From IMG/VR virus record IMGVR_UViG_2534681835_000041: DNA of 19,742 bases. One strand, given 5' to 3'. This DNA comes from a virus. Its lineage: Duplodnaviria > Heunggongvirae > Uroviricota > Caudoviricetes. The notes under the pieces are model-generated. The model was given only the letters and a program-made list of their open reading frames with translations, searched no databases and was not told the DNA's origin. The position numbers and the translations under genes are program-made. How positions within the stretch are numbered: position 1 is the stretch's first letter; each line of letters starts with the position of its first letter. Shown here in pieces: positions 325 through 16,441 of the stretch.

Positions 325-365
325 TATGTGAAGTTCTTCGATAGTATGGAAGGCATTATATAAAA

Positions 366-905: not shown

Positions 906-934
906 GCGACTTTTAGTGTTCCGCTTGAGAGGCC

Positions 935-1471: not shown

Positions 1472-1667
1472 GTATAGACGAGAAGGGTCTACAAATTGTA
1501 GGATACCCGTCCAGATTACCTTAAAGGTACATCTATGGCAGTCGTTTTGTGCTTAAACTACTAAGAAACGATGTCACCAATCGACATGATCGATTGGCAT
1601 AAGTTAGCGAAACAAGCTAGCTTTAAAGAAAGGGTTAGAGACGCCTTTACTGTCTCGGGAGTTTTCT

Positions 1668-1841
1668 ATGAAAGATCAAAAAGCAACCAAGCCACAGGTT
1701 AAGTTCGACACAATGAAAGCATTCGCAGGTATGGGTGCTGCTGTTGAAGTTCTGATGAAGGCTGCTCCTAATGCGTTCACTCACGCTACTGTCTCTGGTA
1801 AAGAGCAGCAGGGTAAGCTTCGTCGTCGCAAAGCAGCATGA
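1668..1841 (+). CDS. small hypothetical protein (57 aa, Lys/Ala-rich)
   Basis: ATG at 1668 with GGGAG 8-12 nt upstream, TGA at 1839-1841, immediately followed by a strong terminator. Below the 60-aa cutoff of the supplied ORF track; found by hand translation. Confidence 0.4.
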   Translation: MKDQKATKPQVKFDTMKAFAGMGAAVEVLMKAAPNAFTHATVSGKEQQGKLRRRKAA

Positions 1842-1862
1842 TCATAGCTGGTGCTTTTTGAA

Positions 1863-1886
1863 AACCCGCCTTCAGGCGGGTTTTTT
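1863..1886. terminator. bidirectional rho-independent terminator between convergent genes
   Basis: Stem aacccgcc / ggcgggtt with ttca loop, T-run 1881-1886 on + and an A-run upstream giving a T-run on -. Sits between the + 57-aa ORF (ends 1841) and the - PrtN-like gene (ends 1889). Confidence 0.6.
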
Positions 1887-1888
1887 CT

Positions 1889-2170
1889 TTAGTGATGTTC
1901 TTTGTCCTTCTGTTTGACTGTTCTGACCTGTTCCCACTCGATACGTCCTTCTTCTCGCCTTTTGTCTATGTATTCCGCAAGATCTTGAATATTGATGCAA
2001 CGTTTTGCTTTTTGTGATGTGCCGATGCGATATGTTGGAACGGGCAACTTACAAGCGTTTGCTTTTGCTTCTGCCGTGGCTGGACTCATACCAAAGTACT
2101 TTTGGCTAACTGCTGAGAGTTCAATGTTTGGGGTATTGAATTCAGCCATCAGTAAAAACAAGGTGTTCAT
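1889..2170 (-). CDS. PrtN-family (pyocin activator-like) small regulator
   Basis: Motifs 'NTLFLLMAEF...VSQKYFG...LPVPTYRIG.SQKAKRCINIQDLAEYID' match my recollection of the PrtN family. Start chosen at the ATG at 2170 (GGAG 8 nt upstream); the track ORF extends to a GTG at 2197. Confidence 0.55.
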   Translation of the reverse strand: MNTLFLLMAEFNTPNIELSAVSQKYFGMSPATAEAKANACKLPVPTYRIGTSQKAKRCINIQDLAEYIDKRREEGRIEWEQVRTVKQKDKEHH

Positions 2171-2206
2171 AATTTTCTCCATCAAAACCGGCTGCACCCG
2201 GGAAAA

Positions 2207-2779
2207 TCATAATTCTGTGCTGGTGGCAGGAATTAATTTCTGCCAGATAGCGGAAACATATTTTGCCTGATGACGGGCATCAGCCAGGGCGTTGTGCCGT
2301 TCGCCATCGAAAGGCATGTCCATTTTGGGGTCGAATCCGATGGAACGCCCAAGCGTAACGATCGTGCGTACATCGTGGTCATTCCAGTACGCCCACGGGC
2401 AGATTTGTCCTGCTCGCTCGTAAGCTCCACGTAAAATTACGTTGTCGAAGGTGGCCCCGTTACCCCAGACTTTTAAATATTTCGTATTGTCTGCGTGCCG
2501 GTTAATGAAATGGTTTAGTTCTGAGAGAGCATCGCTGATCGACAAAGTATCATCAATACAGATTGCAGCTCGCGCTTCAGGGCTTTGTTTCAACCACCAC
2601 AGGATGGTATCGCCGTCAGGTGTAGCTCCTTGCTTCATAGCACTGTCTAGGCTGACAACCGCATAGAATTCTTGTCCGATGTCTCCGGTTTCTGGAGTGA
2701 AGAACACCGCGCCAATGGAAACGATCGGTGCATCCTTATTTTTCCCCATCGTCTCAAGGTCGATCATTAAGTTGTTCAT
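2207..2779 (-). CDS. phage 3'-5' exonuclease (DnaQ/DEDD-like)
   Basis: N-terminal 'LMIDLETMG' Exo-I-like motif with later acidic/His motifs ('HNALADA'). ATG at 2779 preceded by GGAGG; its start overlaps the stop of the upstream gene (TGATG). Confidence 0.7.
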   Translation of the reverse strand: MNNLMIDLETMGKNKDAPIVSIGAVFFTPETGDIGQEFYAVVSLDSAMKQGATPDGDTILWWLKQSPEARAAICIDDTLSISDALSELNHFINRHADNTKYLKVWGNGATFDNVILRGAYERAGQICPWAYWNDHDVRTIVTLGRSIGFDPKMDMPFDGERHNALADARHQAKYVSAIWQKLIPATSTEL

Positions 2780-3513
2780 CACTTCACCTCCTGCGGCGGT
2801 TCCGGTAGCGGCATCCAGTGAGTTGCTTGCTCAATACCATTACCCGGCTTAATCGTTGCATCTCCGCGCCGAAAGGTGCTTCCGGTATAGCGTGCGGAGC
2901 ATATTAGCGGTTCAACCAGAGAGCTATCGAAATTCACCGAAATAAGCACGTTCTGGCCCTTTTCAGGCATTCGATCACTACAGCTTATCCAACTATCCGG
3001 AGTTCCCGGAGAGTTGCCATTTACATCGAAGTTTGGCTCTGCGTCCTGAACCAAGAGGATGTAACCATTCTTGGCTGTATCAAGTTCTAACGCTTCGGTG
3101 ACGGTGCCGAAATAGCGATTACCTAAATCAGCATCACAAGTGCTTATATCAATGGAAACTTCCATGCCTTCGATTAATTCTGGCAAGTTGTAAGTTTGGC
3201 TTACAGGTTGGCTACCCTGAAGCATGGCGGCGCGGTGACACCAGATAATCCAGCCAAGCGCCATATCCCATGCCATGTATTCTCTATCGCCATTTTTTGC
3301 CCTACGGCGATCTACAGATTCCCCGAAACGCTTCTCCATAAATAATTCATAGGCTGCTCGTTCATCCGATACTGCTGCCAGTGATGCCAGTGTAATTTTT
3401 AATGCGGTAAGCATGTTGTTTTGATCTTCATCGAGTCCGAACGGTATTTCATCCCGTGCTGACTCAATGCTGGTAATCGTGTTCTGTAACCATTCTTTGG
3501 TAAGAGTATTCAT
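2779..3513 (-). CDS. Ea22-like phage protein with C-terminal DUF551-like domain
   Basis: 244-aa ORF; C-terminus '...ATHWMPLPEPP' is the characteristic DUF551 ending; N-terminus 'MNTLTKEWLQNTITSIE' is shared with the paralog at 3760-4176. ATG at 3513 with AGGTGA upstream. Confidence 0.6.
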   Translation of the reverse strand: MNTLTKEWLQNTITSIESARDEIPFGLDEDQNNMLTALKITLASLAAVSDERAAYELFMEKRFGESVDRRRAKNGDREYMAWDMALGWIIWCHRAAMLQGSQPVSQTYNLPELIEGMEVSIDISTCDADLGNRYFGTVTEALELDTAKNGYILLVQDAEPNFDVNGNSPGTPDSWISCSDRMPEKGQNVLISVNFDSSLVEPLICSARYTGSTFRRGDATIKPGNGIEQATHWMPLPEPPQEVK

Positions 3514-3515
3514 AA

Positions 3516-3707
3516 CTATTTCACCTTAATCTCAACATTTCGCAGCTTTAGCTCTACTGGCAAGTCTGACTTTCCTGTTAATGCTAATGCGAGATTTTCA
3601 GGAGTAATGAGAGCTGTTATTGTTTTCCCCATCGCCAGACGAATAATCATTCGTATCTCGCGATCGTCACATGCTCCCGGTCGAACAATTGATATTTGTC
3701 CGTTCAT
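3516..3707 (-). CDS. hypothetical small phage protein (63 aa from the ATG at 3707)
   Basis: In-frame ATG at 3707 with GGAGA 8-9 nt upstream; the track ORF begins at a TTG at 3728. No motif recognised. Confidence 0.4.
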   Translation of the reverse strand: MNGQISIVRPGACDDREIRMIIRLAMGKTITALITPENLALALTGKSDLPVELKLRNVEIKVK

Positions 3708-3759
3708 CTCACTCTCCTTTGATGCCAATGTTTACAGCCTGACAAGCCTCTTTGAGCAC

Positions 3760-4176
3760 TCAGTCAACAGCGTCTTTCCATGCTCCGGTTTCGACTGGCG
3801 GATTTTCACTCTTAACCTGTTCATAGAAGCGCACCGCTTTAATCAATCCTTCGGGTGTCAGTGGCACAGGCTGGGCCGTGAATAACGCCTGAATTTCATA
3901 GTTCGGCCTGTCGTTGCAATCCTCTTTTGTCGGTACATATTTCCAGTCACCAACCCACGGCTTCTCCTGAAAGTTCGTAACGCCTTTTCTCACGTAGCGA
4001 TATCGCCATGTCACCGGTTCGGCTTCCAGCGATACCAGCGCGACTTTAAATGCGGTAAGTACGTTTTTAACCACATCGATTTTGAATACTATTTCATCAC
4101 ATACAAACGATTTATCGTCTACTACCGTTTCAATTCCGGTAATCGTGTTTTGTAGCCATTTGGTTAATTCAGCCAT
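3760..4176 (-). CDS. hypothetical phage protein, N-terminal paralog of the Ea22-like gene
   Basis: 138-aa ORF; N-terminus 'MAELTKWLQNTITGIE' parallels 'MNTLTKEWLQNTITSIE' of 2779-3513. ATG at 4176. Confidence 0.55.
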   Translation of the reverse strand: MAELTKWLQNTITGIETVVDDKSFVCDEIVFKIDVVKNVLTAFKVALVSLEAEPVTWRYRYVRKGVTNFQEKPWVGDWKYVPTKEDCNDRPNYEIQALFTAQPVPLTPEGLIKAVRFYEQVKSENPPVETGAWKDAVD

Positions 4177-4185
4177 TTTTCATTA

Positions 4186-4201
4186 CCGCCCTTTCGGGCG
4201 G
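4186..4201 (-). promoter_or_regulatory. GAAA-tetraloop hairpin between a Shine-Dalgarno-like GGAGA and the ATG at 4176
   Basis: Minus-strand RNA reads caGGAGAccgcccGAAAgggcggtaatgaaaaATG: a 6-bp GC stem with GAAA loop lies between the only SD-like motif and the start codon. Confidence 0.35.
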
Positions 4202-4322
4202 TCTCCTGATGTTCTGAGGGTGCAGGAATCCCTCCGGTTAAGGATTAAATTTTATTTACAGAACTGAATTTAATTATTCAGATATACGTATCTGTAACCT
4301 TACGAACCTACTCACTGGATGC

Positions 4323-4796
4323 CTATTTCATAAAAATAATCCAGTGGGTTTTATCGTTTTTTCCTGTTCGTTGACCGATAACAGGTTTTCTGTCGGTCAG
4401 TACCAATATCTGGCGAACAGGTATTTGCGTTTCATTCCATTTAAAAATCAGAACGCCGGATGGACGCAACACACGAAAGGCTTCTTTAAATCCCTGCCGC
4501 AAATCATCACGCCAGGTATCTTTATTCAGCCGTCCATATTTCTTTCCCATCCAGGCGTTATCACCAACACGCTCAAGATGCGGAGGGTCGAATATAACCA
4601 TCGAAAAAGATGCGTCTGCAAATGGTAGTGCACGAAAATCAGCTATCAGATCAGGACTGATAATCAGGCGTCGTCCATCACACAATGTGTGCTCTTCCTT
4701 TCTGATATCGCTAAATATCGCCCGGTCGTCATTCTTATCGAACCAGAACATGCGACTGCCACAGCACATGTCGAGGATTGCTGCATGTCCAGTCAC
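4323..4796 (-). CDS. small SAM-dependent methyltransferase-like protein (DPPH motif)
   Basis: Motif I-like 'ILDMCCGSRM', then 'FDPPH' (DPPY-type motif IV position) and 'LRPSGVLIF'. Start set at the GTG at 4796 (AGGAGG 6 nt upstream, GTGA overlap with the upstream stop); the track ORF extends to an ATG at 4829 with no RBS. Confidence 0.5.
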   Translation of the reverse strand: MTGHAAILDMCCGSRMFWFDKNDDRAIFSDIRKEEHTLCDGRRLIISPDLIADFRALPFADASFSMVIFDPPHLERVGDNAWMGKKYGRLNKDTWRDDLRQGFKEAFRVLRPSGVLIFKWNETQIPVRQILVLTDRKPVIGQRTGKNDKTHWIIFMK

Positions 4797-5143
4797 TGGC
4801 TGCCTCCTTTGCGAAGCCGTTCCGCCCATTCTTCAAGGGATTTCTCTGCATATTCACCGGACAGGCCATCAATCGGATGCGATTCATTAGCTAACTCTTC
4901 TTTTGCTGACAGAATCATGCGTGTAACGTCGAAAACTTCAGCCAAAGGCTTATTGATAAATCCGTGATTGAAAGCAGCAGCAAGACGGCTTGCGGTATAG
5001 TTAATACCCTCGTTGCGAGCCTCAGCACGTACTTCATCGAATTTACGCACCAGATACTCAGCATTTGTTTCATTCACTTTCAGATCTCGCGGTACACATT
5101 TCCCGCGAAGAAACCCTTCCATTTCGAAAACATTCATGCGCAT
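4793..5143 (-). CDS. hypothetical phage protein (116 aa)
   Basis: ATG at 5143 overlaps the 3' end of the HD-domain gene; stop overlaps the downstream GTG start. Acidic, helical-looking sequence with no recognised motif. Confidence 0.5.
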   Translation of the reverse strand: MRMNVFEMEGFLRGKCVPRDLKVNETNAEYLVRKFDEVRAEARNEGINYTASRLAAAFNHGFINKPLAEVFDVTRMILSAKEELANESHPIDGLSGEYAEKSLEEWAERLRKGGSQ

Positions 5144-5638
5144 TTGTGTAACTCCGATAACTCGTTAAAACGTTCCATAAACATCCCGTAGGCATGGCTA
5201 GGTGCCAGTGGAATCACGTTGAACATCTCTGTTGCCGGGATGCCTTCCAGTACAGGCCAGAAAGAGCCATCATCAAGCCCGAGATCGCGGCGTTCGGTTG
5301 CCAGCATGATAAGATCGGCATATTTCACGGGCGTACTCATAACTGGGGGTAACCCGTATTTCTCACGGATTACGGCGTCAATTTTTTCTTCCATCCGTTT
5401 ATAGTCAGGAAGAAGGCGTTTCAGTGGAGCGGGGATGTCCTGGCAATACGCTTCTGTTGCATCATGCATTAATGCTTCAAAAGCAAATTCCTGCGGTACC
5501 AGCTGGCTGCAAAGAACCGCATGTTGGGCGACGCTGTAGAAGTGCGAAAGATGACCGGCAAAGCGACAGATATTTGAAAGGGAAACCGCGATATCGTTAA
5601 TATCGATGTCGTCTTTATTTATCCTGTCATAATAAAAA
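5134..5638 (-). pseudogene. HD-domain phosphohydrolase (YfdR-like 5'-nucleotidase type), 5'-truncated at the IS boundary
   Basis: The track ORF starts at an internal Met (5469), but the frame stays open upstream to the IS end at 5639 ('...NICRFAGHLSHFYSVAQHAVL...ALMHDATE...', H and HD motifs). No ATG, GTG or TTG precedes the first His motif before the IS. Confidence 0.6.
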
Positions 5639-5692
5639 TGAACCGCCCCGGAAATCCTGGAGACTAAACTCCCTGAGAAAGAGGTAAACAGG

Positions 5693-6019
5693 ATGACTAA
5701 AAATACTCGTTTTTCCCCCGAAGTCCGTCAGCGGGCGATTCGTATGGTTCTGGAAAGTCAGGATGAATATGACTCACAGTGGGCGGCAATTTGTTCCATT
5801 GCCCCAAAGATTGGCTGTACGCCGGAGACTCTGCGTGTCTGGGTTCGCCAGCATGAGCGGGATACCGGGGGCGGTGATGGTGGGCTCACCAGCGCTGAAC
5901 GTCAGCGTCTGAAAGAGCTGGAACGTGAAAATCGTGAACTGCGCCGCAGTAACGATATCCTTCGCCAGGCTTCCGCTTATTTTGCGAAGGCGGAGTTCGA
6001 CCGCCTCTGGAAAAAATGA
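5693..6019 (+). CDS. IS3-family transposase OrfA (HTH, leucine-zipper)
   Basis: 108 aa '[22 protein letters not shown]...[30 protein letters not shown]'; ends in an A6 tract at 6011-6016 overlapping the orfB start. Confidence 0.9.
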
Positions 6020-6906
6020 TGCCACTGCTGGATAAGCTGCGTGAGCAGTACGGGGTCGGACCGGTATGCAGCGAACTGCATATTGCCCCGTCAACGTATT
6101 ACCATTGTCAGCAACAGCGACATCATCCGGATAAACGCAGTGCCCGTGCGCAGCACGACGACTGGCTGAAGAGAGAGATACAGCGCGTATACGATGAAAA
6201 TCATCAGGTGTACGGTGTGCGTAAAGTCTGGCGTCAGTTGTTACGGGAAGGAATCAGGGTGGCCAGATGTACAGTGGCACGTCTCATGGCGGTTATGGGA
6301 CTTGCCGGTGTTCTCCGGGGTAAAAAGGTCCGTACGACCATCAGCCGGAAAGCCGTTGCCGCAGGCGACCGCGTAAACCGTCAGTTCGTGGCAGAACGAC
6401 CTGACCAGCTGTGGGTGGCTGATTTTACTTACGTCAGCACATGGCAGGGCTTCGTCTATGTGGCGTTTATCATTGATGTGTTTGCCGGATACATCGTGGG
6501 GTGGCGGGTCTCATCGTCTATGGAAACGACATTCGTGCTGGATGCGCTGGAGCAGGCGTTGTGGGCCCGTCGTCCGTCTGGCACCATCCATCACAGCGAT
6601 AAAGGCTCTCAGTATGTGTCACTGGCCTATACGGAGCGACTAAAAGAAGCCGGATTACTGGCATCAACAGGGAGTACAGGCGACTCGTATGACAACGCGA
6701 TGGCTGAGAGCATCAATGGTCTTTACAAAGCGGAGGTAATACACCGTAAGAGCTGGAAAAACCGTGCAGAAGTGGAACTGGCCACACTAACGTGGGTGGA
6801 CTGGTATAACAATCGACGATTGCTGGGAAGGCTGGGCCATACTCCTCCGGCAGAAGCAGAAAAAGCTTATTATGCTTCCATCGGAAACGATGATCTGGCA
6901 GCCTGA
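6016..6906 (+). CDS. IS3-family transposase OrfB (DDE integrase core)
   Basis: 296 aa with the rve-type core ('WVADFTYV', 'HSDKGSQY', '[15 protein letters not shown]'); ATG at 6016 overlaps the orfA stop in the -1 frame. Confidence 0.9.
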
Positions 6907-6948
6907 GTTCACAGATAAAACACTCTCCAGGAAACCCGGGGCGGTTCA

Positions 6949-7354
6949 GTTCTTTGACTGGTTCAAAAGAGTGACTGGTTCTGGGTGAATCTCCTGCACT
7001 ACCCCCTGGTGCAACTCCTGCACTACCTGGTGAATTTGCTGCACCAGATAGTGAATTATTTGCACTACTCCCTGGTGAATCTCCTGCACCATCCAGATGA
7101 AGGAGATAGATATTAATTGAGTTACCTTTTTCACCTTTCCGGGTGACTTTTTTTACCAGCCCGGAATCACAAAGGGCCGCAATATGATTCATCACAGAAC
7201 GTTTGCTAATCTCGCACTGATCAGCAATATGCTGGTAGCTGGGCCAGCACTCACCCTGATCGCTGGCATTATCAGCCAGCTTGATCAGAACCAGTTTTCG
7301 CAATGGATTACCCACTCGAATTTTCATCGCTTTAACCATCAGCTCCATACTCAT
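6949..7354 (-). pseudogene. replication initiator O-like gene (N-terminal HTH domain), 3'-truncated by IS copy 1
   Basis: N-terminus 'LRKLVLIKLADNASDQGECWPSYQHIADQCEISKRSVMNHIAALCDSGLV' resembles the N-terminal DNA-binding region of lambda O and related replisome organisers. The ORF continues through iteron-encoded low-complexity sequence and then reads into the IS. ATG at 7354 overlaps the upstream stop. Confidence 0.5.
6983..7094. repeat. five imperfect ~21-25-bp direct repeats (iteron-like) inside the O-like ORF, next to an AT-rich stretch
   Basis: Units built on gtgaat/gtgcaa..tcctgcac start at 6985, 7009, 7030, 7051 and 7076 (spacing 24/21/21/25 bp); an AT-rich segment follows at about 7100-7140. 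Confidence 0.5.
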
Positions 7355-7575
7355 GCTGCACCTCCGAGATGCTTCATGTTTTTTCCGGAGCGAAAGGCTA
7401 TAAGCGGCATACTGACGCGGTAATTACGGCCCAGCGGTTCACAAATCACCTTCTGGCATTCACGGTCAACCAGGCTAACACGTAGAACATGCCCTGCAGG
7501 CGTGGTGTACCACTGACCCGGACGAGGACAACGGAAAGTTTGATTGGTAAACCGTTTGAAAATATTCCGGATCAT
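7351..7575 (-). CDS. hypothetical small protein (74 aa, Cys-containing)
   Basis: ATG at 7575 overlaps the stop of the Rha-domain gene (ATGA), and its own stop overlaps the O-like ATG (ATGA). No motif recognised. Confidence 0.45.
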   Translation of the reverse strand: MIRNIFKRFTNQTFRCPRPGQWYTTPAGHVLRVSLVDRECQKVICEPLGRNYRVSMPLIAFRSGKNMKHLGGAA

Positions 7576-8735
7576 TTGCGCCCCCTTACCTCTGAAGGGT
7601 TCAGCGACAAATTTATGAGGCAGGCCAGCGCCGAAGCATCATTAATATAGTCATATAAGCTAACAGCCAGCGGAGATTCGGCTTTTGCCAACATAGGATA
7701 AAGCTGCTGCAGCCAGACCTGATGAATTGATGAAATGTAGGAATAGAGAACACTGGCGTTATGTGCAACGTCGCTCGGTACAGAGGGCTTTGAAAGCTGT
7801 TTCTCCATCTGGTTAAAGGCATTGATGTATGCCTCTTTGAACTGGGCAGCACGTTTGCCAGTGAAGCCCATTGCCAGGAACGCGAAGCCGTCGCGGGTGA
7901 TGTGGTAGCAAGGAAGTTTGCGAGTACCGCCGTTGGGCTGGTGTACCAAAATTGATGTCTCCGCAAAATTGCGGGCACAAAACTCTGGAGAACAATCCAA
8001 AATGCGGATCTTTTTCAGAACATCGTCATGACGTTTAGAGAAGAAGTCAGCAACAGCCAAAGAAGATGTAACAGCCTGACCATCAACGATGGCAATTTCA
8101 GGTTGAGAGAGGGTTGGGAGAGTAGTCATGGTGACAGCCCCGGTAGTCAGTTTTTCAGAAAACTCACCACATGGGACGCCAATCACAGAGGTGGTGAGAC
8201 GTACAGGGTTGGCGTTACCGGAGACTACCGAACCCGGCCCGACCGAAGTCGGCCCTGTACGCCCCACCATAATTTGGGCGTAGCAATGCTCATGACACGA
8301 AAAAACCGCATGAGCGCGGTTATGCTCAGTAATCAATTTCAGGACGCCAATCCCGGCACCCGCTTTATAAGGTGCCTGAACAGTGTAACGTCCCGGAATG
8401 GCAGAATCAATGTGCTGGTGGTCCTTCACACTCAACAAAATCACGCCTGAATTTCCACAAAGGACTAAAGCACTCATGCGGGTAGTCTTTGCGAAGATAG
8501 ATAACGCGCTGTGTTTCTGGCTCCCAACGAATAACATGAACATAAAGTCCTCTTCCGTCACGAAACCAGCGGTTAAGTTCCTGCACAACTCGCCCCCCAC
8601 AGTCAGGTAAAGTTCTCTGTGGTTACTTACAGCCAGGTGATTTGGTAATCTGCATTCATACCGTAACAACAGGTGTTCAGCGACGCTGACCACCAGCTGT
8701 TGCGACAAACGGTTATTTGCCGTTAAACTGTTCAT
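7572..8735 (-). CDS. Rha-family phage regulatory protein with an unusual ~200-aa N-terminal extension
   Basis: Residues ~205-300 ('PEIAIVDGQAVTSSLAVADFFSKRHDDVLKKIRIL...YHITRDGFAFLAMGFTGKRAAQFKEAYINAFNQME') match the Rha domain. The 387-codon frame is open from an ATG at 8735 that overlaps the CII-like stop (ATGA). Alternative internal start at 8129 would give a 185-aa Rha-only protein. Confidence 0.5.
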   Translation of the reverse strand: MNSLTANNRLSQQLVVSVAEHLLLRYECRLPNHLAVSNHRELYLTVGGELCRNLTAGFVTEEDFMFMLFVGSQKHSALSIFAKTTRMSALVLCGNSGVILLSVKDHQHIDSAIPGRYTVQAPYKAGAGIGVLKLITEHNRAHAVFSCHEHCYAQIMVGRTGPTSVGPGSVVSGNANPVRLTTSVIGVPCGEFSEKLTTGAVTMTTLPTLSQPEIAIVDGQAVTSSLAVADFFSKRHDDVLKKIRILDCSPEFCARNFAETSILVHQPNGGTRKLPCYHITRDGFAFLAMGFTGKRAAQFKEAYINAFNQMEKQLSKPSVPSDVAHNASVLYSYISSIHQVWLQQLYPMLAKAESPLAVSLYDYINDASALACLINLSLNPSEVRGRK

Positions 8736-9283
8736 GCGTTAGTTTCTCCACAGACACAAAACGCCACGACGCCCGGAGCTGCACACTCGCGGGCGTCACT
8801 CTTTTCTGGAGCGCAAAAGATTTTGTAGACCAGTGCTGCATGCTCCTGGAGCTTCGAAATTGACAGATACAACTCATCATTAATTGCTGTCTGCTCGTGT
8901 GGCTCCACTACCCCATCTTCGATTGCCGAACGAATCTGCTTTGAGTAACTCCCGATCTGTTCGATGACTTCCAGCAGGCGCTGGTTTATATCGGCGTTCT
9001 CTACTTCCTCAAGTTCAGGAAGCGATACAAACACCCCACCAGCAGACTGTGCGACAGCATCCGCAATGTAGTGAGTGCCAGCCGCGCGCTGTAAAATCAT
9101 TGCCCATCCCAGCGGGAAAATCTGATCGCCATCTGCACGAAGGCGGTTGAATAAAGCGTTCTCTGTTACATCCAGCCACTCAGCAGCTTCAGCGTAACCC
9201 CCCGGCAACGCCGCGATAGTTTTTCTGACAGCTTTCACGTACCACTCAGGCTGTTTTTCCACTTTCCAGTGATGCTTACCCAC
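8732..9283 (-). CDS. phage regulatory CII-like protein (CP76-type), tentative
   Basis: 183 aa; pattern '...ALFNRLRADGD...GGVFVSLPELEE...' resembles the CII/CP76 family as I recall it. GTG start at 9283 with AGGAG 7 nt upstream; overlaps the cro-like 3' end by 8 nt. Confidence 0.5.
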   Translation of the reverse strand: MGKHHWKVEKQPEWYVKAVRKTIAALPGGYAEAAEWLDVTENALFNRLRADGDQIFPLGWAMILQRAAGTHYIADAVAQSAGGVFVSLPELEEVENADINQRLLEVIEQIGSYSKQIRSAIEDGVVEPHEQTAINDELYLSISKLQEHAALVYKIFCAPEKSDARECAAPGVVAFCVCGETNA

Positions 9284-9536
9284 GGCTTATCTCCTGTTCC
9301 TGTGGTTTAAACCCATTCTGGTTTTGGCTAGATTGAAAACGTGCCGGATAAAGAATCTGCATTTCGCTGATTTCACCCTTAAAAAAATTGGCCAGACGTT
9401 CTGCAAGATCGATAGATGGAATTTGTTCCAGTCTTTCAATACGACTCAGCGTCGCTGTATTGACCTGAACGCCCGCAGCAACATGCTGCAAAGTAAATCC
9501 GTGCGCCTTACGCACATTCCGTAATGGTGATTGCAT
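9276..9536 (-). CDS. Cro-like HTH (XRE-family) regulator
   Basis: 86 aa with HTH 'FTLQHVAAGVQVNTATLSRIE'; ATG at 9536 with GGAGG 5 nt upstream; transcribed divergently from the CI-like gene across an operator-rich spacer. Confidence 0.65.
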   Translation of the reverse strand: MQSPLRNVRKAHGFTLQHVAAGVQVNTATLSRIERLEQIPSIDLAERLANFFKGEISEMQILYPARFQSSQNQNGFKPQEQEISRG

Positions 9537-9633
9537 ATAACCTCCACATATTGCGTGATGAGCATATTATTTCACGCAAATATTTTGCGCAAGTTGATTT
9601 GCTTAACGCGCAATAAAGAAATGTAATAAACGC
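9537..9633. promoter_or_regulatory. oR-like immunity control region with divergent promoters (pR-like toward cro, pRM-like toward cI)
   Basis: Inverted repeats TTGCGTGA(9551-9558)/TCACGCAA(9572-9579), palindrome TTGCGCAA (9585-9592), TTGC-N7-GCAA (9599-9613). Minus-strand TTGCGC(-35)-17-TAATAT(-10). Plus-strand TTGCTT-18-TAATAA ending 6 nt before the cI ATG, which has no SD. Confidence 0.5.
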
Positions 9634-10326
9634 ATGAACATAGGAAATCGAGTCAGACAACTTCGCCAGGCGAAGAACATGAAAATCGCCGATCTCGCTG
9701 AAGCAATAGGAGTGGATGCGGCGAATATCTCGCGCCTCGAAACAGGTAAGCAGAAACAATTCACTGAACAAGCCCTGAGTAATATTGCCAGGAGCTTAGG
9801 TGTTGATATTGCTGATCTCTTTACCTCAGACCTCAAAAGTAATACTGTATGTAAAAACAGTATTAGTGAGGATGTTGCGCAGGTGAAGGATGTATTCCGT
9901 ATTGAAATGCTGGATGTCAGTGCCAGTGCGGGAAATGGCCTTATCCAGGGCGGTGATGTCATTGATGTGATTCATGCCATTGAATACAGAACTGATAATG
10001 CTGTATCGATGTTTGGTGGACGACCAGCAAATCACATTAAAGTTATCAACGTTCGTGGGGACAGTATGTGTCCAACCATTGAGCCAGGAGATCTCATCTT
10101 CGTTGATATCAGTATCAATCAGTTTGATGGGGATGGTATATATGTATTTGGTTTTGATGATAAAATTTACGTCAAACGACTGCAAATGATACCTGATAAA
10201 CTGCTGGTAATTTCTGATAATCAGATTTACCGCGAATGGGGAATTACCAGCGAAAACGAACATCGGTTTATGGTCTTTGGAAAGGTCTTAATCAGTCAGT
10301 CACAAACCCTTAAGCGACACAATTAA
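9634..10326 (+). CDS. CI-like phage repressor (HTH plus S24 LexA-type autopeptidase domain)
   Basis: N-terminal HTH ('MKIADLAEAIGVDAANISRLETG'); C-terminal S24 motifs 'VRGDSMCPTIEPGD' (Ser nucleophile) and 'KIYVKRL' (Lys). Confidence 0.8.
   Translation: MNIGNRVRQLRQAKNMKIADLAEAIGVDAANISRLETGKQKQFTEQALSNIARSLGVDIADLFTSDLKSNTVCKNSISEDVAQVKDVFRIEMLDVSASAGNGLIQGGDVIDVIHAIEYRTDNAVSMFGGRPANHIKVINVRGDSMCPTIEPGDLIFVDISINQFDGDGIYVFGFDDKIYVKRLQMIPDKLLVISDNQIYREWGITSENEHRFMVFGKVLISQSQTLKRHN
9843..9862. promoter_or_regulatory. near-consensus LexA (SOS) box inside the cI coding sequence
   Basis: TACTGTATGTAAAAACAGTA, against consensus TACTGT-(AT)4-ACAGTA: both outer hexamers match exactly. A possible -35 TTTACC at 9820-9825 places the box over a -10 position (TACTGT). 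Confidence 0.5.
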
Positions 10327-10348
10327 CCCCCTACCTCAACATCAATTA

Positions 10349-10368
10349 GCCACCAGAAGGTGGCTTTT
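10349..10368 (+). terminator. rho-independent terminator downstream of cI
   Basis: Stem gccacc / ggtggc with agaa loop, followed by TTTT at 10365-10368; 23 nt after the cI stop. Confidence 0.6.
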
Positions 10369-10382
10369 CATTACCCACCAAA

Positions 10383-10435
10383 TTGCATATCTCGCAATAA
10401 AAACACTTGCACAATGCGCAACTTCATTTTATCTT
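10383..10435 (+). promoter_or_regulatory. oL-like operator pair with a candidate pL-like promoter
   Basis: Two perfect TTGC-N7-GCAA sites (10383-10397, 10407-10421), the same motif as at 9599-9613; TTGCAC(10407)-17-TATCTT(10430-10435) as a possible rightward promoter. Confidence 0.45.
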
Positions 10436-10846
10436 TCTTTCCAGACCTACAAACAAGGTACTAACAAAATTTGGTTGTAACACGGCGTATGGCACATGCG
10501 TCGTTAGCGGTCTGGGGACGTTAAAGGGGACAATCCACTCCTTGCTCGGGCAAACAAACCAGGTAGCCGGAATGTGCAAGTCAATGAGGATGCTGATAAG
10601 ACGCCTAACCAGCGTGGCGATTCGGTTTGACGCCTGGGAAGAGACCAGGGTGCAACGATGAGGGCATTTATGGAACCGCGACAAAGTGTGGTGCCGTAAC
10701 TGGCTAAGTGCTCTCAGCGTTGTGGTAATCCGCGAAATGGCGCGGCGGTAAGTATGGCGGGGTTATTCCTTCCCCGTTGAGGACACCGGGTTGTCAGGTT
10801 GACCATACGCTTAAGTGACAAGCCCACCACAACAGCCACTGCTTTG

Positions 10847-10892
10847 GCGGTACCAGTTTGTACACTTGCTTCCGGCTGGTACCGCTCTTTTT
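10847..10892 (+). terminator. strong hairpin plus T-run in the leader upstream of the first rightward gene; overlaps a boxA-like motif
   Basis: Perfect 10-bp stem gcggtaccag(10847-10856)/ctggtaccgc(10876-10885), 19-nt loop, then TCTTTTT. CGCTCTTTTTAC at 10884-10895 resembles boxA (CGCTCTTTAACAA). Confidence 0.5.
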
Positions 10893-11029
10893 ACAAAACA
10901 GAGAAGAGCATCACCGGACGACGGGCTCATAACCCAATCCACCCGGGCGGCTGCCACCGCAGGTGTTCTTCTCTGTTTTGTGGAGAAACCAACCGACCTT
11001 GCAGGGTCGATATGATGAGGAGCAGCAAA

Positions 11030-11392
11030 ATGGCTAGCGAACGCAGTACTGATGTGCAGGCATTTATCGGGGAGCTGGACGGCGGCGTATTTGAAACCAA
11101 AATCGGCGCAGTTCTCAGTGAAGTCGCTTCCGGTGTGATGAACACGAAAACCAAAGGTAAGGTCTCACTCAACCTGGAAATCGAACCATTTGATGAGAAC
11201 CGTGTGAAAATCAAACACAAACTCTCATATGTTCGCCCGACTAACCGCGGGAAAATTTCCGAAGAAGACACCACCGAAACGCCGATGTATGTCAATCGCG
11301 GTGGTCGCCTGACTATTCTGCAGGAAGACCAGGGACAATTACTGACTCTTGCCGGTGAACCTGACGGAAAACTCCGCGCAGCAGGTCATTAA
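11030..11392 (+). CDS. hypothetical phage protein (120 aa)
   Basis: ATG at 11030 with GAGGAG 7 nt upstream; the track ORF extends upstream to 10799 but that part is low-complexity with no RBS. Size and position resemble a CPS-53 YfdP-type gene, recalled from memory only. Confidence 0.5.
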   Translation: MASERSTDVQAFIGELDGGVFETKIGAVLSEVASGVMNTKTKGKVSLNLEIEPFDENRVKIKHKLSYVRPTNRGKISEEDTTETPMYVNRGGRLTILQEDQGQLLTLAGEPDGKLRAAGH

Positions 11393-11457
11393 TATCGTTC
11401 TTAATTAACTGATTATTTATCTCATCACTGAATATCTTTATATAGTGAGGACTTATT

Positions 11458-12282
11458 ATGTCTCAGAACTTAGACGCAACCGCAATTAATCAAATCCATG
11501 CCCTTATTTCTGCTCAGGGTGTTAATGAAATTATCAGTAAGATTGGTGCCGATGCTGTGGCATTGCCTGAGAATTTCCGCATTCATGATCTGGAAAAATT
11601 TAATTTAAATCGCTTCCGTTTCCGTGGTGCGCTTTCCACTGCCAGCATCGATGACTTTACCCGTTATTCTAAAGATCTTGCAGATGAAGGCACCCGCTGC
11701 TTTATTGATGCTGATAATATGCGTGCCGTCAGTGTGCTTAACCTGGGTACTATTGATGAACCAGGTCACGCAGATAACACCGCCACTCTCAAACTGAAAA
11801 AGACAGCACCGTTCTCTGCTCTGTTGTCTGTTAATGGCGAGCGTAACTCCCAGAAATCACTGACAGAATGGATTGAAGACTGGGCCGACTACCTTGTGGG
11901 CTTTGATGCTAATGGTGACACCATTCAGGCAACAAAAGCGGCTGCGGCGGTCCGTAAAATCACGATTGAAGCAAACCAGACCGCTGATTTTGAAGATAAT
12001 GACTTCAGCGGCAAACGCTCCCTGATGGAGTCTGTCGAAGCGAAGACCAAAGACATTATGCCAGTGGCATTTGAATTTAAATGCATTCCGTTTGAAGGTC
12101 TGAAAGAACGTCCGTTTAAATTACGCCTCAGCATTATCACTGGCGATCGTCCGGTACTGGTTCTGCGCATTATTCAGCTGGAGGCGGTGCAGGAAGAAAT
12201 GGCTAACGAATTTCGTGATCTGCTTGTTGAGAAATTCAAGGACAGCAAAGTAGAAACCTTTATTGGTACTTTCACCGCCTGA
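11458..12282 (+). CDS. hypothetical phage protein (274 aa; possibly YfdQ/DUF2303-like)
   Basis: ATG at 11458 with GAGG 7 nt upstream; long ORF with ordinary composition. The family assignment rests on size and context recall only. Confidence 0.6.
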
Positions 12283-12409
12283 TTTCATTACTGCAAATGC
12301 CCCTGAGGGGGCATTTATGGAAACGTAATTTACTCAATAATCGCCGGATGGTGAGGGATTCTTTTTACCAGAATTCAGCGCGGTGCAGCGCATATACGTG
12401 GAGAACAAA

Positions 12410-12853
12410 ATGTCATTTATTAAAACTTTTTCCGGGAAACCAGTCAATGAACCAATAGCTGTTGGTGAATCTGCTGATGAGTCTGTGCGAGTTCGTTCAA
12501 ACCGACCGGAATACTCTCCGGAGTTTGAGCAGGCATGGCTGGCATATCCCAAACGTGCTGGTGGCAATTCAAAATCTGCAGCCTTCAAAGCCTGGAAAGC
12601 CCGTTTGAATGAGGGGGTAAACCCCGAAACCATGCTGGAAGGTGTGAAACGCTACGCGGGCTGGGTATCTGCGATGGGTAACAGCGGCACACAATTTGTG
12701 AAACAGGCTGTCACGTTCTTTGGTCCGGATCGTCATTTCGAAGAATCCTGGGAAGTTCCTGCGGTATCTGCAGCCAGACGTGAGGACCCGTACTTCAAAG
12801 CCAGTTACGACAACGTGGACTACAGCCAGATCCCGGCAGGATTCAGGGGGTGA
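12410..12853 (+). CDS. hypothetical phage protein (147 aa) with 'FEQAWLAYPKRAGG..KSAAFKAWKA' motif
   Basis: ATG at 12410 with GGAG 6 nt upstream (the track ORF starts at a GTG at 12383). The motif resembles ones I associate with phage replication-associated proteins, unverified. Confidence 0.5.
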   Translation: MSFIKTFSGKPVNEPIAVGESADESVRVRSNRPEYSPEFEQAWLAYPKRAGGNSKSAAFKAWKARLNEGVNPETMLEGVKRYAGWVSAMGNSGTQFVKQAVTFFGPDRHFEESWEVPAVSAARREDPYFKASYDNVDYSQIPAGFRG

Positions 12854-12855
12854 TC

Positions 12856-12948
12856 ATGAGTCTGTTAAATGACGTTCAGAAATTCATTGAAGCCCATCCG
12901 GGCTGTACTTCCGGAGACATTGCGGATGCTTTTTACGTGGGGGCTTAA
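12856..12948 (+). CDS. candidate 30-aa micro-ORF between the 147-aa gene and the Dam-like gene
   Basis: ATG at 12856, 2 nt after the upstream stop, with AGGGGG upstream; its TAA overlaps the Dam ATG (TAATG). Supported only by tight operon packing. Confidence 0.3.
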   Translation: MSLLNDVQKFIEAHPGCTSGDIADAFYVGA

Positions 12949-13601
12949 TGAGTAATAAATATTGCCAGGCGCTGGTAGAACTGCGGAACAAACCAGCCCA
13001 TGAACTGAAGGAAGTGGGCGATCAGTGGCGCACGACGGACAGCATTTTCTGGGGGATTAACACCATGTTTGGCCCGTTTGTTCTGGATCTGTTCACTGAC
13101 GGTGATAACGCCAAATGTGCTGCGTATTACACGGCGGAAGACAACGCGCTGGCGCATGACTGGTCAGAACGTCTTGCGGAGCTTAAAGGTGCTGCCTTTG
13201 GTAATCCCCCATACAGCCGCGCCAGTCAGCATGAGGGGAAATACATCACTGGCATGCGTTACATCATGAAACATGCCAGTGCCATGCGTGATAAAGGCGG
13301 GCGCTATGTTTTCCTGATCAAAGCTGCCACCAGCGAAGTGTGGTGGCCGGAAGATGCAGACCATATTGCTTTTATTCGCGGGCGTATTGGTTTTGAACTG
13401 CCTGCCTGGTTTATCCCGAAAGACGAAAAGCAGGTGCCAACAGGTGCTTTCTTCGCTGGTGCTATTGCTGTTTTCGACAAGACCTGGAAGGGACCGGCAA
13501 TCAGCTACATCGGGCGCGATGAACTTGAGGCATGTGGTGAGGCATTTCTGGCGCAGGTTCGCCAGCAGGCGGAAAAACTGGTCAGGGAGATGGCGGCATG
13601 A
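12948..13601 (+). CDS. phage N6-adenine DNA methyltransferase (Dam-type)
   Basis: 'FGNPPYS' (NPPY catalytic motif) in a 217-aa protein typical of the phage Dam family; stop overlaps the next start (ATGA). Confidence 0.7.
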   Translation: MSNKYCQALVELRNKPAHELKEVGDQWRTTDSIFWGINTMFGPFVLDLFTDGDNAKCAAYYTAEDNALAHDWSERLAELKGAAFGNPPYSRASQHEGKYITGMRYIMKHASAMRDKGGRYVFLIKAATSEVWWPEDADHIAFIRGRIGFELPAWFIPKDEKQVPTGAFFAGAIAVFDKTWKGPAISYIGRDELEACGEAFLAQVRQQAEKLVREMAA

Positions 13602-13924
13602 CGACGTTAACTCAATGCCAGCAGCAGGTGCTGGATATGCTGATTTCTTACCAGAAAGAACGTGGCTTCCCGCCAACTAATCAGGAGGTGGCAACCATGC
13701 TGGGATACCGTTCAGTGAATGCAGCGGTGGAGCATCTTCGCGCACTGGAGAAAAAAGGCGTCATCACGATAAAGCGTGGCGTGGCATGGGGGATAACGCT
13801 TCATACCGCGGTGAAGGACGACGACAGCGAGGCAGCCGGGATTATCCGCGCACTGCTTGCCGGTGAGGAAAACGCCAGACTGCGTGCAGCCCACTGGTTA
13901 CATGAGAGGGGCCTGAAAGTATGA
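13598..13924 (+). CDS. LexA N-terminal DNA-binding-domain homolog lacking the S24 peptidase domain
   Basis: 'MTTLTQCQQQVLDMLISYQKERGFPPTNQEVATMLGYRSVNAAVEHLRALEKKGVITIKRGVAWGITL' aligns by eye with E. coli LexA 1-70 ('[68 protein letters not shown]'). The protein ends at 108 aa with no Ala-Gly cleavage site or Ser/Lys dyad. Confidence 0.7.
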   Translation: MTTLTQCQQQVLDMLISYQKERGFPPTNQEVATMLGYRSVNAAVEHLRALEKKGVITIKRGVAWGITLHTAVKDDDSEAAGIIRALLAGEENARLRAAHWLHERGLKV

Positions 13925-14277
13925 AGCTGATCCTGCCTTTCCCGCCCAGCGTGAACACGTACTGGCGACACCCCAACAAAGGGGCGTTTGCTGGTAAGAG
14001 TCTGATAAGCGCAGCGGGGCGCAAATTCCAGAGCGCGGCATGCGCAGCAATAGTTGAGCAGTTACGTCGTCTGCCGAAACCAACGTCGGCACCTGCTTCA
14101 GTGGAGATCGTGTTGTTTCCTCCGGATAACCGGATCCGCGATCTGGACAACTATAACAAGGCGCTGTTTGACGCCCTGACCCACGCGGGTGTGTGGGAAG
14201 ACGACAGACAGGTGAAAAGAATGCTGGTGGAGTGGGGACCGGTTATCCCGAAAGGGAAGGTCGAGATCACTATCTGA
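13921..14277 (+). CDS. rusA: RusA-family Holliday junction resolvase, 3' end replaced by the IS insertion
   Basis: 'LPFPPSVNTYWRH...RDLDNYNKALFDALTHAGVWEDDRQV' matches RusA. The stop codon TGA (14275-14277) is supplied by the first bases of the IS; the displaced 11-codon tail is found after the IS at 15588-15623. Confidence 0.75.
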   Translation: MKLILPFPPSVNTYWRHPNKGAFAGKSLISAAGRKFQSAACAAIVEQLRRLPKPTSAPASVEIVLFPPDNRIRDLDNYNKALFDALTHAGVWEDDRQVKRMLVEWGPVIPKGKVEITI

Positions 14278-14316
14278 ACCGCCCCGGGTTTCCTGGAGAG
14301 TGTTTTATCTGTGAAC

Positions 14317-15207
14317 TCAGGCTGCCAGATCATCGTTTCCGATGGAAGCATAATAAGCTTTTTCTGCTTCTGCCGGAGGAGTATGGCCCAGCCTTCCCAG
14401 CAATCGTCGATTGTTATACCAGTCCACCCACGTTAGTGTGGCCAGTTCCACTTCTGCACGGTTTTTCCAGCTCTTACGGTGTATTACCTCCGCTTTGTAA
14501 AGACCATTGATGCTCTCAGCCATCGCGTTGTCATACGAGTCGCCTGTACTCCCTGTTGATGCCAGTAATCCGGCTTCTTTTAGTCGCTCCGTATAGGCCA
14601 GTGACACATACTGAGAGCCTTTATCGCTGTGATGGATGGTGCCAGACGGACGACGGGCCCACAACGCCTGCTCCAGCGCATCCAGCACGAATGTCGTTTC
14701 CATAGACGATGAGACCCGCCACCCCACGATGTATCCGGCAAACACATCAATGATAAACGCCACATAGACGAAGCCCTGCCATGTGCTGACGTAAGTAAAA
14801 TCAGCCACCCACAGCTGGTCAGGTCGTTCTGCCACGAACTGACGGTTTACGCGGTCGCCTGCGGCAACGGCTTTCCGGCTGATGGTCGTACGGACCTTTT
14901 TACCCCGGAGAACACCGGCAAGTCCCATAACCGCCATGAGACGTGCCACTGTACATCTGGCCACCCTGATTCCTTCCCGTAACAACTGACGCCAGACTTT
15001 ACGCACACCGTACACCTGATGATTTTCATCGTATACGCGCTGTATCTCTCTCTTCAGCCAGTCGTCGTGCTGCGCACGGGCACTGCGTTTATCCGGATGA
15101 TGTCGCTGTTGCTGACAATGGTAATACGTTGACGGGGCAATATGCAGTTCGCTGCATACCGGTCCGACCCCGTACTGCTCACGCAGCTTATCCAGCAGTG
15201 GCATCAT
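14317..15207 (-). CDS. IS3-family transposase OrfB (copy 2)
   Basis: Identical 296-aa translation to 6016-6906. Confidence 0.9.
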
Positions 15208-15530
15208 TTTTTCCAGAGGCGGTCGAACTCCGCCTTCGCAAAATAAGCGGAAGCCTGGCGAAGGATATCGTTACTGCGGCGCAGTTCACGATTTTCACGT
15301 TCCAGCTCTTTCAGACGCTGACGTTCAGCGCTGGTGAGCCCACCATCACCGCCCCCGGTATCCCGCTCATGCTGGCGAACCCAGACACGCAGAGTCTCCG
15401 GCGTACAGCCAATCTTTGGGGCAATGGAACAAATTGCCGCCCACTGTGAGTCATATTCATCCTGACTTTCCAGAACCATACGAATCGCCCGCTGACGGAC
15501 TTCGGGGGAAAAACGAGTATTTTTAGTCAT
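15204..15530 (-). CDS. IS3-family transposase OrfA (copy 2)
   Basis: Identical 108-aa translation to 5693-6019. Confidence 0.9.
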
Positions 15531-15642
15531 CCTGTTTACCTCTTTCTCAGGGAGTTTAGTCTCCAGGAAACCCGGGGCGGTTCAATCAGTAAGTACGAGA
15601 AAACGGCGGGTGCAGCCGCCTGATCAAGAGGAGAAACGAAGT

Positions 15643-16440: not shown

Positions 16441-16441
16441 G

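Follow-up and report, generated by a model that had tools for sequence, protein, structure and literature searches.

An inverted repressor-switch block with one breakpoint at the tip of IS629 in a prophage of Escherichia coli O111:H8 DEC8E

Introduction

In EHEC, small structural variation comes mainly from IS629. Whether rearrangements at IS629 ends arise by stray strand transfer or by breaks followed by IEE microhomology joining is debated. The element causes adjacent deletions (Kusumoto et al. 2011, as presented in PMC9943667 and bioRxiv 10.1101/2023.06.07.543989), explained there either by 'sloppy' one-end strand transfer or by transposase breaks and IEE microhomology joining. The literature places IEE in O111:H8.

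The locus described here lies in a prophage related to Enterobacteria phage mEp460 and the SfV-like phages PhiR40_1, 1720a-02, phiSTEC1575-Stx2k and Stx2a_1447. In this group the block from yfdR to O has the canonical orientation, and yfdR and O are both intact and free of IS. In the dusA prophages of the O111 strains 11128, 110512 and UTME-6, which are also canonical in orientation, the right tip of IS629 is joined to Rha, the stretch from Rha to KilA-N is deleted and the IS itself is truncated into DUF968. DEC8E, in contrast, has retained the Rha-to-KilA-N genes and carries an inversion.

Results

The window, that is the whole stretch of 19,742 nucleotides analysed, covers the early region of a lambdoid, mEp460/SfV-like prophage integrated at dusA in E. 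coli O111:H8 DEC8E. It matches O111:H- 11128 at 99.9% identity and functional phage mEp460 (NC_019716) at 96-98%; together with strain 2013C-3342 these served as references for orientation. With the mEp460 group it has in common, at 96-98% nucleotide identity, a PrtN-type excisionase, exonuclease, DUF551, yfdR, yfdQ, yfdP, S24 repressor, cro, CII-like protein, Rha, a single replication gene, Dam, LexA-like protein, RusA, KilA-N, DUF968 and Q. mEp460 differs in having a PerC-family gene (395 bp), absent from the window, between its one replication gene and Dam. The O111 dusA prophages share the integration site of DEC8E, their left arm is 99.98% identical to that of the window, and their YfdQ, YfdP, repressor, cro and YmfL proteins are identical.

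The gene labels of the first-pass annotation, made from the letters of the DNA alone, hold at the Pfam level: PrtN, Rv2179c-like exonuclease, DUF551, methyltransferase, YfbR/HD-like, HTH_36/DnaD_N replication protein, Ash and Rha, Phage_CP76 (CII), cro-like HTH_3, cI-like HTH and Peptidase_S24, Dam, LexA_DNA_bind, RusA, KilA-N, DUF968 and Antiterm Q. The YfbR/HD-like match lies below the Pfam cutoff; PGAP labels this gene as yfdR 5'-deoxynucleotidase.

To the lambdoid canonical order (xis-exo-...-pL-cI, then cro-cII-O-nin-Q-late) the window as it stands does not conform. Comparison by blastn against mEp460, O111 11128 and 2013C-3342 showed that window positions 6949-12438 are oriented opposite to both flanks, while 1-5640 and 12438-19742 are collinear with the references. 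All three references, including functional mEp460, have the order xis-exo-...-yfdR-yfdQ-yfdP-cI, then cro-cII-Rha-O-Dam-RusA-Q. Synteny with related phages thus bears out the non-canonical module order that had been noted initially. Re-inverting 5639-12438 restores the canonical order exactly and rebuilds two split genes to the nucleotide; the pattern is not due to chance. These comparisons confirm that a 6.8-kb repressor-switch block is inverted in DEC8E, one of its breakpoints falling precisely on the IS629 tip. The block (5639-12438; 6,800 bp) consists of IS copy 1 (1,310 bp) and 5,490 bp of phage DNA carrying the 5' half of O (O'), Rha, the cII-like gene, cro, cI, yfdP, yfdQ and the first 29 nt of yfdR. 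No genes are missing from it and 1-4 nt are lost overall. Of the IS-associated inversion or deletion proposed at first, it is the inversion, not the deletion, that base-level comparison with the three references shows.

Within the block, the rightward early operon (7351-9536, minus strand; Pfam and PGAP) now points leftward. It comprises the cro-like HTH gene (9276-9536), CII-like YmfL (8732-9283), Ash/Rha (7572-8735) and a small ORF (7351-7575), all on the minus strand. The cI-like repressor gene (HTH and Peptidase_S24; 9634-10326), now on the plus strand, is followed by a terminator-like hairpin (10348-10365). Operator-like TTGC-N7-GCAA motifs are located at 10383 and 10407, with one more at 9599 in the cI-cro spacer; the region around the cI-like gene may have promoter and operator roles. 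Further right are yfdP (11030-11392, plus) and yfdQ/DUF2303 (11458-12282, plus), with which the leftward early operon begins and which are now aimed right towards Q; the O111 11128 counterparts, identical in protein, are on the opposite strand beside yfdR. Inside the 5' half of O, three 21-bp iteron-like direct repeats (6984-7094) end 35 nt from IS copy 1 and are candidate origin repeats by analogy with lambda ori, which lies inside O.

Both neighbours of copy 1 are truncated, as had been recognized. The 3' part of yfdR (HD-type 5'-deoxynucleotidase; 5134-5638, minus) lacks the start codon and the first ~10 codons (~30-32 nt). It is collinear with intact yfdR of O111 11128 (11134-11638 in that record) and of mEp460, and PGAP sets its start at 5655, inside IS copy 1. 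The O-like replication gene, without its 3' half, is represented by codons 1-135 (6949-7354, minus), which contain an HTH_36 / DnaD_N-like domain and align with the intact 272-aa gene of 2013C-3342 and the 'replication protein' of mEp460; the open frame continues two codons into the IS. The first-pass annotation would have sought the HD 5' end and the O 3' part in the rest of the genome. They are instead fused in frame at 12410-12853. The displaced yfdR 5' end (12410-12438, plus), with its ATG at 12410 and its own GGAG ribosome-binding site upstream, matches the opening 29 nt of intact yfdR without a difference, and the O-like 3' half follows (12438-12853, plus). The resulting 147-aa chimera, YfdR(1-10)::O(139-272), corresponds exactly to EHW22624.1 of E. 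coli DEC8E and is recorded on one NCBI contig and a Logan contig. The window therefore holds the replication initiator only in two parts on opposite strands. A P-like gene, also proposed for that search, is not to be expected, as the functional relative mEp460 has a single replication gene only.

At the left junction, J1 (5638/5639; AAAAA/TGAACC), the IS left tip abuts the yfdR body and TG is shared (2-nt microhomology). At the right junction, J2 (12438), the yfdR start abuts AAC and the O 3' half, with one A shared (1-nt microhomology). Both overlaps fall within the short range of 0-4 nt. At the joints 1-4 nt of yfdR are absent, and yfdR has no duplication. No IS sequence was found at J2, nor a second IS at the breakpoint. 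An IS-free second breakpoint to the right of yfdQ had been anticipated correctly, but at 12283-12409; its actual position is 12438/12439, 29 nt further right, and position 12410, where the first reading closed its span, is the ATG of the displaced yfdR 5' end.

Copy 1 (5639-6948, plus) and copy 2 (14275-15584, minus) are both IS629/IS1203 elements (IS3 family) of 1310 bp with TG...CA tips, TGAACCGCCCCGG... ends and ~25-bp terminal inverted repeats. In copy 1, whose left (IRL) tip forms J1, orfA (HTH; 5693-6019) and orfB (DDE/rve; 6016-6906) are joined by a programmed -1 frameshift. PGAP annotates 'IS3-like element IS1203 family transposase, programmed frameshift' as well as a pseudoknot, and HTH_Tnp_1 and rve were found on identical sequence (IS629 ORFs of 108 and 296 aa). 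Copy 2, a simple insertion, cuts the final 12 codons off RusA and is flanked by a direct ATC duplication (14272-14274 and 15585-15587), 3 bp being the size also seen at other O111 IS629 copies.

Since the two copies are 1310-bp inverted repeats with only 3 base differences (99.8% identical), homologous recombination between them might be considered as the cause of the inversion. This explanation is refuted and has next to no probability: copy 2 keeps its direct ATC, the inverted block ends IS-free, and 12438-14274 is collinear with all references. Copy 2, with its own duplication and collinear flanks, is no breakpoint of the inversion.

Copy 1 is flanked by AAA and GTT and has no direct target-site duplication as the window stands, in agreement with the first reading, because the rearrangement separated and inverted its AAC copies. 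These are located at 6949-6951 (as GTT, the reverse complement) and 12438-12440 (AAC, at the start of the O 3' half). In the 2013C-3342 record the O 5' half reaches 14162 and the 3' half begins at 14160; the halves overlap by AAC likewise in the mEp460 record, at 5001-5003. AAC on both O halves shows that IS629 first inserted, in minus orientation, in the middle of a single O-like replication gene with the usual 3-bp duplication. A later break fell exactly between the IS left (IRL) tip and the AAC flank and a second one 29-32 nt inside yfdR, 5.5 kb from the IS tip, and the ends were rejoined the other way round. The tip of copy 1 was thereby preserved with nucleotide precision and became attached to distant DNA, and no new duplication arose.

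Among 5,426 complete E. coli genomes, J1 and J2 occur only in DEC8E, and no other strain has an IS at the O or yfdR site; DEC8E is the sole carrier of the O insertion as well as of the inversion. An assembly artefact from the repeated IS might be suspected, as the window stops where a draft contig stops and the complete genome differs from it over the last 385 nt. However, J2 is a unique junction without repeats, and both junctions, present in two independent assemblies of DEC8E, are identical in the 2012 short-read draft AIGJ01000067.1 (100% match to window 4410-19742), the Logan read assembly and the complete genome CP077465. We consider the chance of an artefact negligible. UTAK-6, which has the canonical order, carries within O, ~50 nt from the DEC8E insertion point, an IS629-like element of 95.8% identity that has the same orientation and an AGT duplication. 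By analogy, UTAK-6 may be regarded as resembling the precursor of DEC8E.

In most O111 strains the right tip of IS629 meets a site in Rha, here too at a shared TG, with the intervening genes deleted; TG is also present at the deletion joint of O111 11128. This second tip-precise IS629 junction in the same prophage argues against IS-independent illegitimate recombination, in which one of two random breaks hit the IS tip by chance. Although microhomology of 1-2 nt is as found in generic end joining, one break coincides to the nucleotide with the border of IS tip and flank, among ~5.5 kb of possible positions. We regard such a coincidence as highly improbable.

Discussion

Taken together, the most probable course after the insertion of IS629 in O is a single-event, IS-end-initiated, non-duplicative inversion, which would correspond to the IS629-adjacent deletions promoted by transposase and IEE. 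The event would have started at the IS end, either when the IRL 3'-OH, cut free by transposase, attacked the opposite strand in a stray strand transfer, or when a break made by transposase was mended by microhomology joining. It involved neither copying of the IS nor a new target duplication. Some points stand against this mechanism. Direct reciprocal strand exchange would lose no nucleotides, though 1-4 nt are missing; the yfdR site is weakly like an IS end (8-mer; rank 47 of 1141 bins); and the IS3-family copy-out-paste-in chemistry alone is not expected to leave such products, according to a review.

A path with two IS copies appears rather unlikely. A second IS629 would have entered yfdR in opposite orientation, either as an independent insertion or through intramolecular transposition of the replicative Shapiro type; the block between the copies would have inverted, leaving the form …CCGGGAAGCATTT/IS/AAC… at J2 with the second IS629 inverted, and this copy would later have been excised imprecisely, for example by IEE-promoted excision. 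Inverted IS copies and replicative intramolecular transposition are textbook routes to inversion, and replicative inversion also places the AAC copies in inverted orientation, as observed; the inverted AAC/GTT pair is, however, explained equally well by a prior simple insertion. The flanks of the J2 copy would not match once the block had turned, so that loss of this copy would need chance microhomology, and J2 has a 1-nt overlap. EHEC that carry IEE frequently excise IS629, and O111:H8 is among the serotypes in which IEE is found. On the other hand, three events are needed instead of one, and neither an IS remnant nor a duplication in yfdR remains. If AAA is taken as the yfdR duplication, excision must also have removed GCATTT exactly. 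Moreover, DEC8E excepted, the 5,426 complete genomes lack an IS at either site. Since insertion and inversion are both private to DEC8E, with no intermediate, one-step and multi-step paths are indistinguishable.

From the anatomy of the locus, the replication initiator would be separated from its C-terminal half. The cro-side promoter should now read O', antisense IS and start-less yfdR towards exo/xis, and the promoter downstream of cI should read yfdP, yfdQ, the YfdR::O chimera, Dam, clipped RusA (RusA'), IS copy 2, KilA-N, DUF968 and Q. The same repressor should still govern both early promoters in this apparently 'miswired' cascade. The prophage is predicted to be unable to replicate and defective: besides the split O gene and the RusA gene cut short by copy 2, the complete DEC8E genome has a frameshift in the portal gene. 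The initial judgement of a broken replication gene and a 'probably defective' prophage was reasonable. It is less likely that the promoter swap, with Q behind the leftward promoter and xis/exo behind the cro promoter, was kept as useful to the host.

The locus is a neat but unremarkable case of a dead prophage rearranged by insertion sequences, and its scrambled appearance is explained without missing DNA or a new phage architecture. For annotation, it teaches that the remainder of a 'partial' gene flanking an IS may be found at a distance of a few kb. An inversion preserves both joints, whereas half of the evidence is lost in a deletion. If the favoured mechanism is true, the reciprocal IS-free junction, normally lost with the excised DNA, is preserved here, and the fate of the freed flank would be joining with 1-nt microhomology after losing 1-4 nt. 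The DEC8E locus and the tip-precise deletion of sister O111 strains form a junction pair that any mechanism must reproduce, and provide the basis for a simple PCR assay of mechanism.

With replicative intramolecular inversion (IS26, IS1, Tn3 type) and inverted-copy recombination, the DEC8E locus shares an IS-bounded segment and target triplets inverted at opposite ends. It differs in that those routes leave an IS at both ends, whereas the DEC8E block has one at a single end, copy 2 being 1.8 kb beyond J2. With IS629-adjacent deletions and IEE-promoted excision in EHEC it shares these features: one tip exactly kept and joined to distant DNA, no new target duplication, very short microhomology and a host serotype known for IEE. 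The difference from these is that the DEC8E product is not an IS-adjacent deletion but an inversion, in which all genes are kept and the reciprocal IS-free junction is present. A single-copy IS629 inversion is not described in PMC9943667 or bioRxiv 10.1101/2023.06.07.543989, the two papers compared. Tentatively, the locus may represent a natural single-copy, non-duplicative inversion from one IS3-family tip, an undescribed counterpart of the IS629-adjacent deletions promoted by transposase and IEE.

Gene order of the prophage early region

Window 1-19357 is identical to the chromosome of E. coli O111:H8 strain 8E (NZ_CP077465.1, 4938843-4958587, reverse strand), and window 4410-19742 matches the end of the DEC8E draft contig AIGJ01000067.1 at 100% identity. 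Window 10792-14302 is also covered by the Logan read assembly SRR094977, and DEC8E/8E has been sequenced at least two times. Note that all 75 differences from the complete genome (65 mismatches and 10 gap openings) fall within the last 385 nt (19358-19742), where the draft contig ends; they probably reflect a repeat, collapsed or paralogous, in the terminal part of the contig and not a real difference. The window is a lambdoid prophage early region adjoining zur/yjbJ and a 105-bp 5' fragment of dusA (687-791). As this fragment marks the prophage end, dusA is the integration site of this phage family. No integrase lies at this end; by analogy with the functional phage mEp460, it is expected at the far end, since the two small genes found here beside the dusA fragment have int beyond them in mEp460.

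The gene names of the first-pass annotation hold at family level, as judged by domain families and PGAP annotation. Left of IS629/IS1203 copy 1, genes for a PrtN-type excisionase, an exonuclease, a DUF551 protein, a methyltransferase and YfdR (HD) occupy the minus strand. To its right, also on the minus strand, are the 5' half of an HTH_36/DnaD_N-like replication gene (the O-like gene, O), a small ORF, Ash/Rha, a CII-like gene (Phage_CP76) and a cro-like HTH gene. The plus strand carries the S24 repressor, yfdP, yfdQ, a 'replication protein missing its N-terminus', Dam, a LexA-like gene, RusA, IS copy 2, KilA-N, DUF968 and Q, then tRNAs and late genes. The idea of a missing P-like gene was rejected: mEp460 has none, and by that comparison it would not be expected in a phage of this type.

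Two repeats were also observed. A 68-nt direct repeat (3427-3494 and 4093-4160; 71% identity) encodes similar N-termini (…LTKWLQNTITxIE…) in the DUF551 protein and an adjacent 138-aa ORF, which thus share an N-terminal module of the ead/Ea22-like kind. A 25-nt inverted repeat at 10893-10981 (84% complementary, 39-nt loop) lies shortly before yfdP, within the gene-poor interval 10327-11029 downstream of the repressor gene. It may act as a terminator or a nut-like element, or encode a small RNA.

We compared this order with three references: the prophages at the same site in O111:H- 11128 (identical proteins) and 2013C-3342 (free of IS), and the isolated phage mEp460. In all three, yfdR, yfdQ, yfdP and the repressor gene lie on one strand, and cro, cII-like, Rha, O, (PerC), Dam, LexA-like, RusA, KilA-N, DUF968 and Q on the other. 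By blastn, window 1-5640 and 12438-19742 are collinear with the references, whereas 6949-12438 is reverse-complemented. This segment is a single contiguous piece in 11 phage records at 95.6-98% identity, including PhiR40_1, 1720a-02 and several Stx phages. Re-inverting 5639-12438 (6,800 bp) restores yfdR, O and the canonical order. The relatives thus show the opposite order, supporting the IS-associated inversion that had been proposed from the sequence alone. The alternative proposed with it, a deletion in the immunity/replication block, does not hold, as all bases except 1-4 nt are accounted for against mEp460 and O111:H- 11128. Separately, mEp460 and 2013C-3342 have a PerC-family gene between O and Dam, most of which is absent here through a 395-bp deletion at window 12933; this joint shows 1-2 nt of microhomology and is free of IS.

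The joints at base level

Intact yfdR starts with ATGTCATTTATTAAAACTTTTTCCGGGAAGCATTTTTATTATGAC. Window 12410-12438 holds its first 29 nt, preceded by the native ribosome-binding site GGAG, while the remainder, from ...TTTTTATTATGAC (gene strand), meets the left tip of IS copy 1 at 5638/5639. The second breakpoint predicted by the first-pass annotation therefore exists and is free of IS, but lies at 12438 rather than near 12283-12409. TG is common to yfdR and the IS tip at the first joint and a single A is shared at the second, so that 1-4 nt of yfdR were lost and none duplicated.

The O-like gene (272 aa when intact, in 2013C-3342) is broken after codon 135. The 5' half runs to window 6949, where AAC appears in reverse complement as GTT, and the 3' half starts with AAC at 12438-12440; these bases (14160-14162 in the 2013C-3342 locus, 5001-5003 in the mEp460 locus) are thus present in both halves. 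The YfdR start and the O 3' half form an in-frame chimera of 147 aa, MSFIKTFSGK followed by PVNEPIAVG..., which is recorded as EHW22624.1 from DEC8E in one NCBI contig and one Logan contig. The chimeric ORF from the alternative GTG start (12383) was not found on record as a called product.

Insertion preceded inversion

Both IS629/IS1203 elements are 1310 bp long, copy 1 at 5639-6948 on the plus strand and copy 2 at 14275-15584 on the minus strand. They differ only at three adjacent bases, positions 14-16 of the left inverted repeat (IRL; window 5652-5654 vs 15569-15571). These bases are AAA in copy 1 and in other O111 copies; in copy 2 they are GTT, the right-end version, which makes its 25-bp inverted repeats perfect. 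Copy 2 sits in the 3' end of rusA (14272-14277), removing the last 12 codons, and its tip supplies TGA as a new stop.

ATC stands on both sides of copy 2, whereas the flanks of copy 1 differ (AAA and GTT). The AAC duplication at O is a normal 3-bp IS629 footprint, comparable to ATC at copy 2 and to GAC at an IS629 copy in strain 110512. The IS was therefore inserted first into O, in minus orientation. The inversion followed, with one breakpoint exactly at the border of the IS left tip and the AAC flank and the other at yfdR codon 10-11. A further IS1203 copy in the exonuclease gene of the same prophage in strain UTME-6 (4457-5766 of that locus) is flanked by …GGGG and GCCC…, with no obvious 3-bp direct duplication.

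Among 5,426 complete E. coli genomes, strain 8E was the only one with the junction of the IS and the O 5' half, and likewise the only one with that of the yfdR 5' end and the O 3' half. The inferred ancestral junction of IRL and the O 3' half was found in 0 of the 5,426; three apparent matches were independent IS insertions elsewhere in the O gene. Insertion and inversion are both private to DEC8E/8E, and the two steps are thus inseparable by comparison. A natural analogue of the precursor is provided by strain UTAK-6, which has the canonical order and a 95.8%-identical IS in the O gene (5761-7070 of that locus), in the same orientation, ~50 nt away and flanked by an AGT duplication.

Note that 21-bp iteron-like repeats are located in the middle of the O-like gene (6984-7094). 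The independent UTAK-6 insertion sits within them, and an IS3-family element is located close by in another two strains; this region may be an insertion hot spot.

Consequences for the prophage

Downstream of the repressor gene come a terminator-like hairpin (10348-10365) and two TTGC-N7-GCAA motifs, and the motif is present in the cI-cro spacer too. Such a layout is consistent with two divergent early promoters under repressor control, as in lambda, within the inverted block. The cro-side promoter would now read cro, cII-like, Rha, the O 5' half, antisense IS, start-less yfdR, exo and xis. The other would read yfdP, yfdQ, the chimera, Dam, LexA-like, the clipped RusA, antisense copy 2, KilA-N, DUF968 and Q. 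Derepression should still affect both arms at once, making 'miswired' a less certain description than 'replication-dead'. The DNA-binding half of the initiator, with the iteron-like repeats, is parted from its C-terminal half. In the complete genome the portal gene is also frameshifted and an HNH gene is partial.

Mechanism of the inversion

Recombination between copies 1 and 2 is excluded, because ATC is directly repeated around copy 2 and the flanks of this copy are collinear with the references. Inversion between two inverted copies, or by replicative intramolecular transposition, leaves an IS at both ends, and the joint at 12438 holds no IS sequence. The simplest reading is a single event for which the left tip of copy 1 was the starting point. 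Its 3' end (…CA), cut by the transposase, would have been linked to the opposite strand within yfdR, and the freed flank to the remaining side of the yfdR site, with microhomology of 2 nt and 1 nt at the joints. The main rival, less likely but still plausible, is insertion of a second IS into yfdR followed by inversion and imprecise loss of the copy at 12438. It would also leave this joint free of IS, but requires three events, and GCATTT must have gone exactly together with the IS.

As a possible look-alike of an IS end (TG...CCCGGAAA), the yfdR site ranked 47 among 1141 30-nt bins and was not counted as evidence. A literature search for single-copy IS3-family inversions returned IS26-type replicative cases only.

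For the single event, deletions adjacent to IS629 offer a parallel. These have been explained either by 'sloppy' strand transfer by one end or by repair of transposase breaks by IEE, a PrimPol-helicase with microhomology end-joining activity (PMC9943667; bioRxiv 10.1101/2023.06.07.543989). IEE is reported from O111:H8. In most other O111 strains, the same prophage has the IS629 right tip joined to Rha at a shared TG (window 8670 equivalent), and the genes from Rha to RusA are gone. In O111:H- 11128 (15380-16210 of that locus), and likewise in 110512 and UTME-6, the IS interior is joined to mid DUF968, and Rha through KilA-N are therefore deleted. Because the same prophage carries an IS629-adjacent deletion in most other O111 strains, we infer that the DEC8E inversion may be the inversional outcome of the process behind such deletions. 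In conclusion, the prophage is defective and carries a strain-private IS629-associated rearrangement. Events of this kind are known from EHEC genomes; the sole unusual feature here is the single-copy, tip-precise form with both joints preserved.
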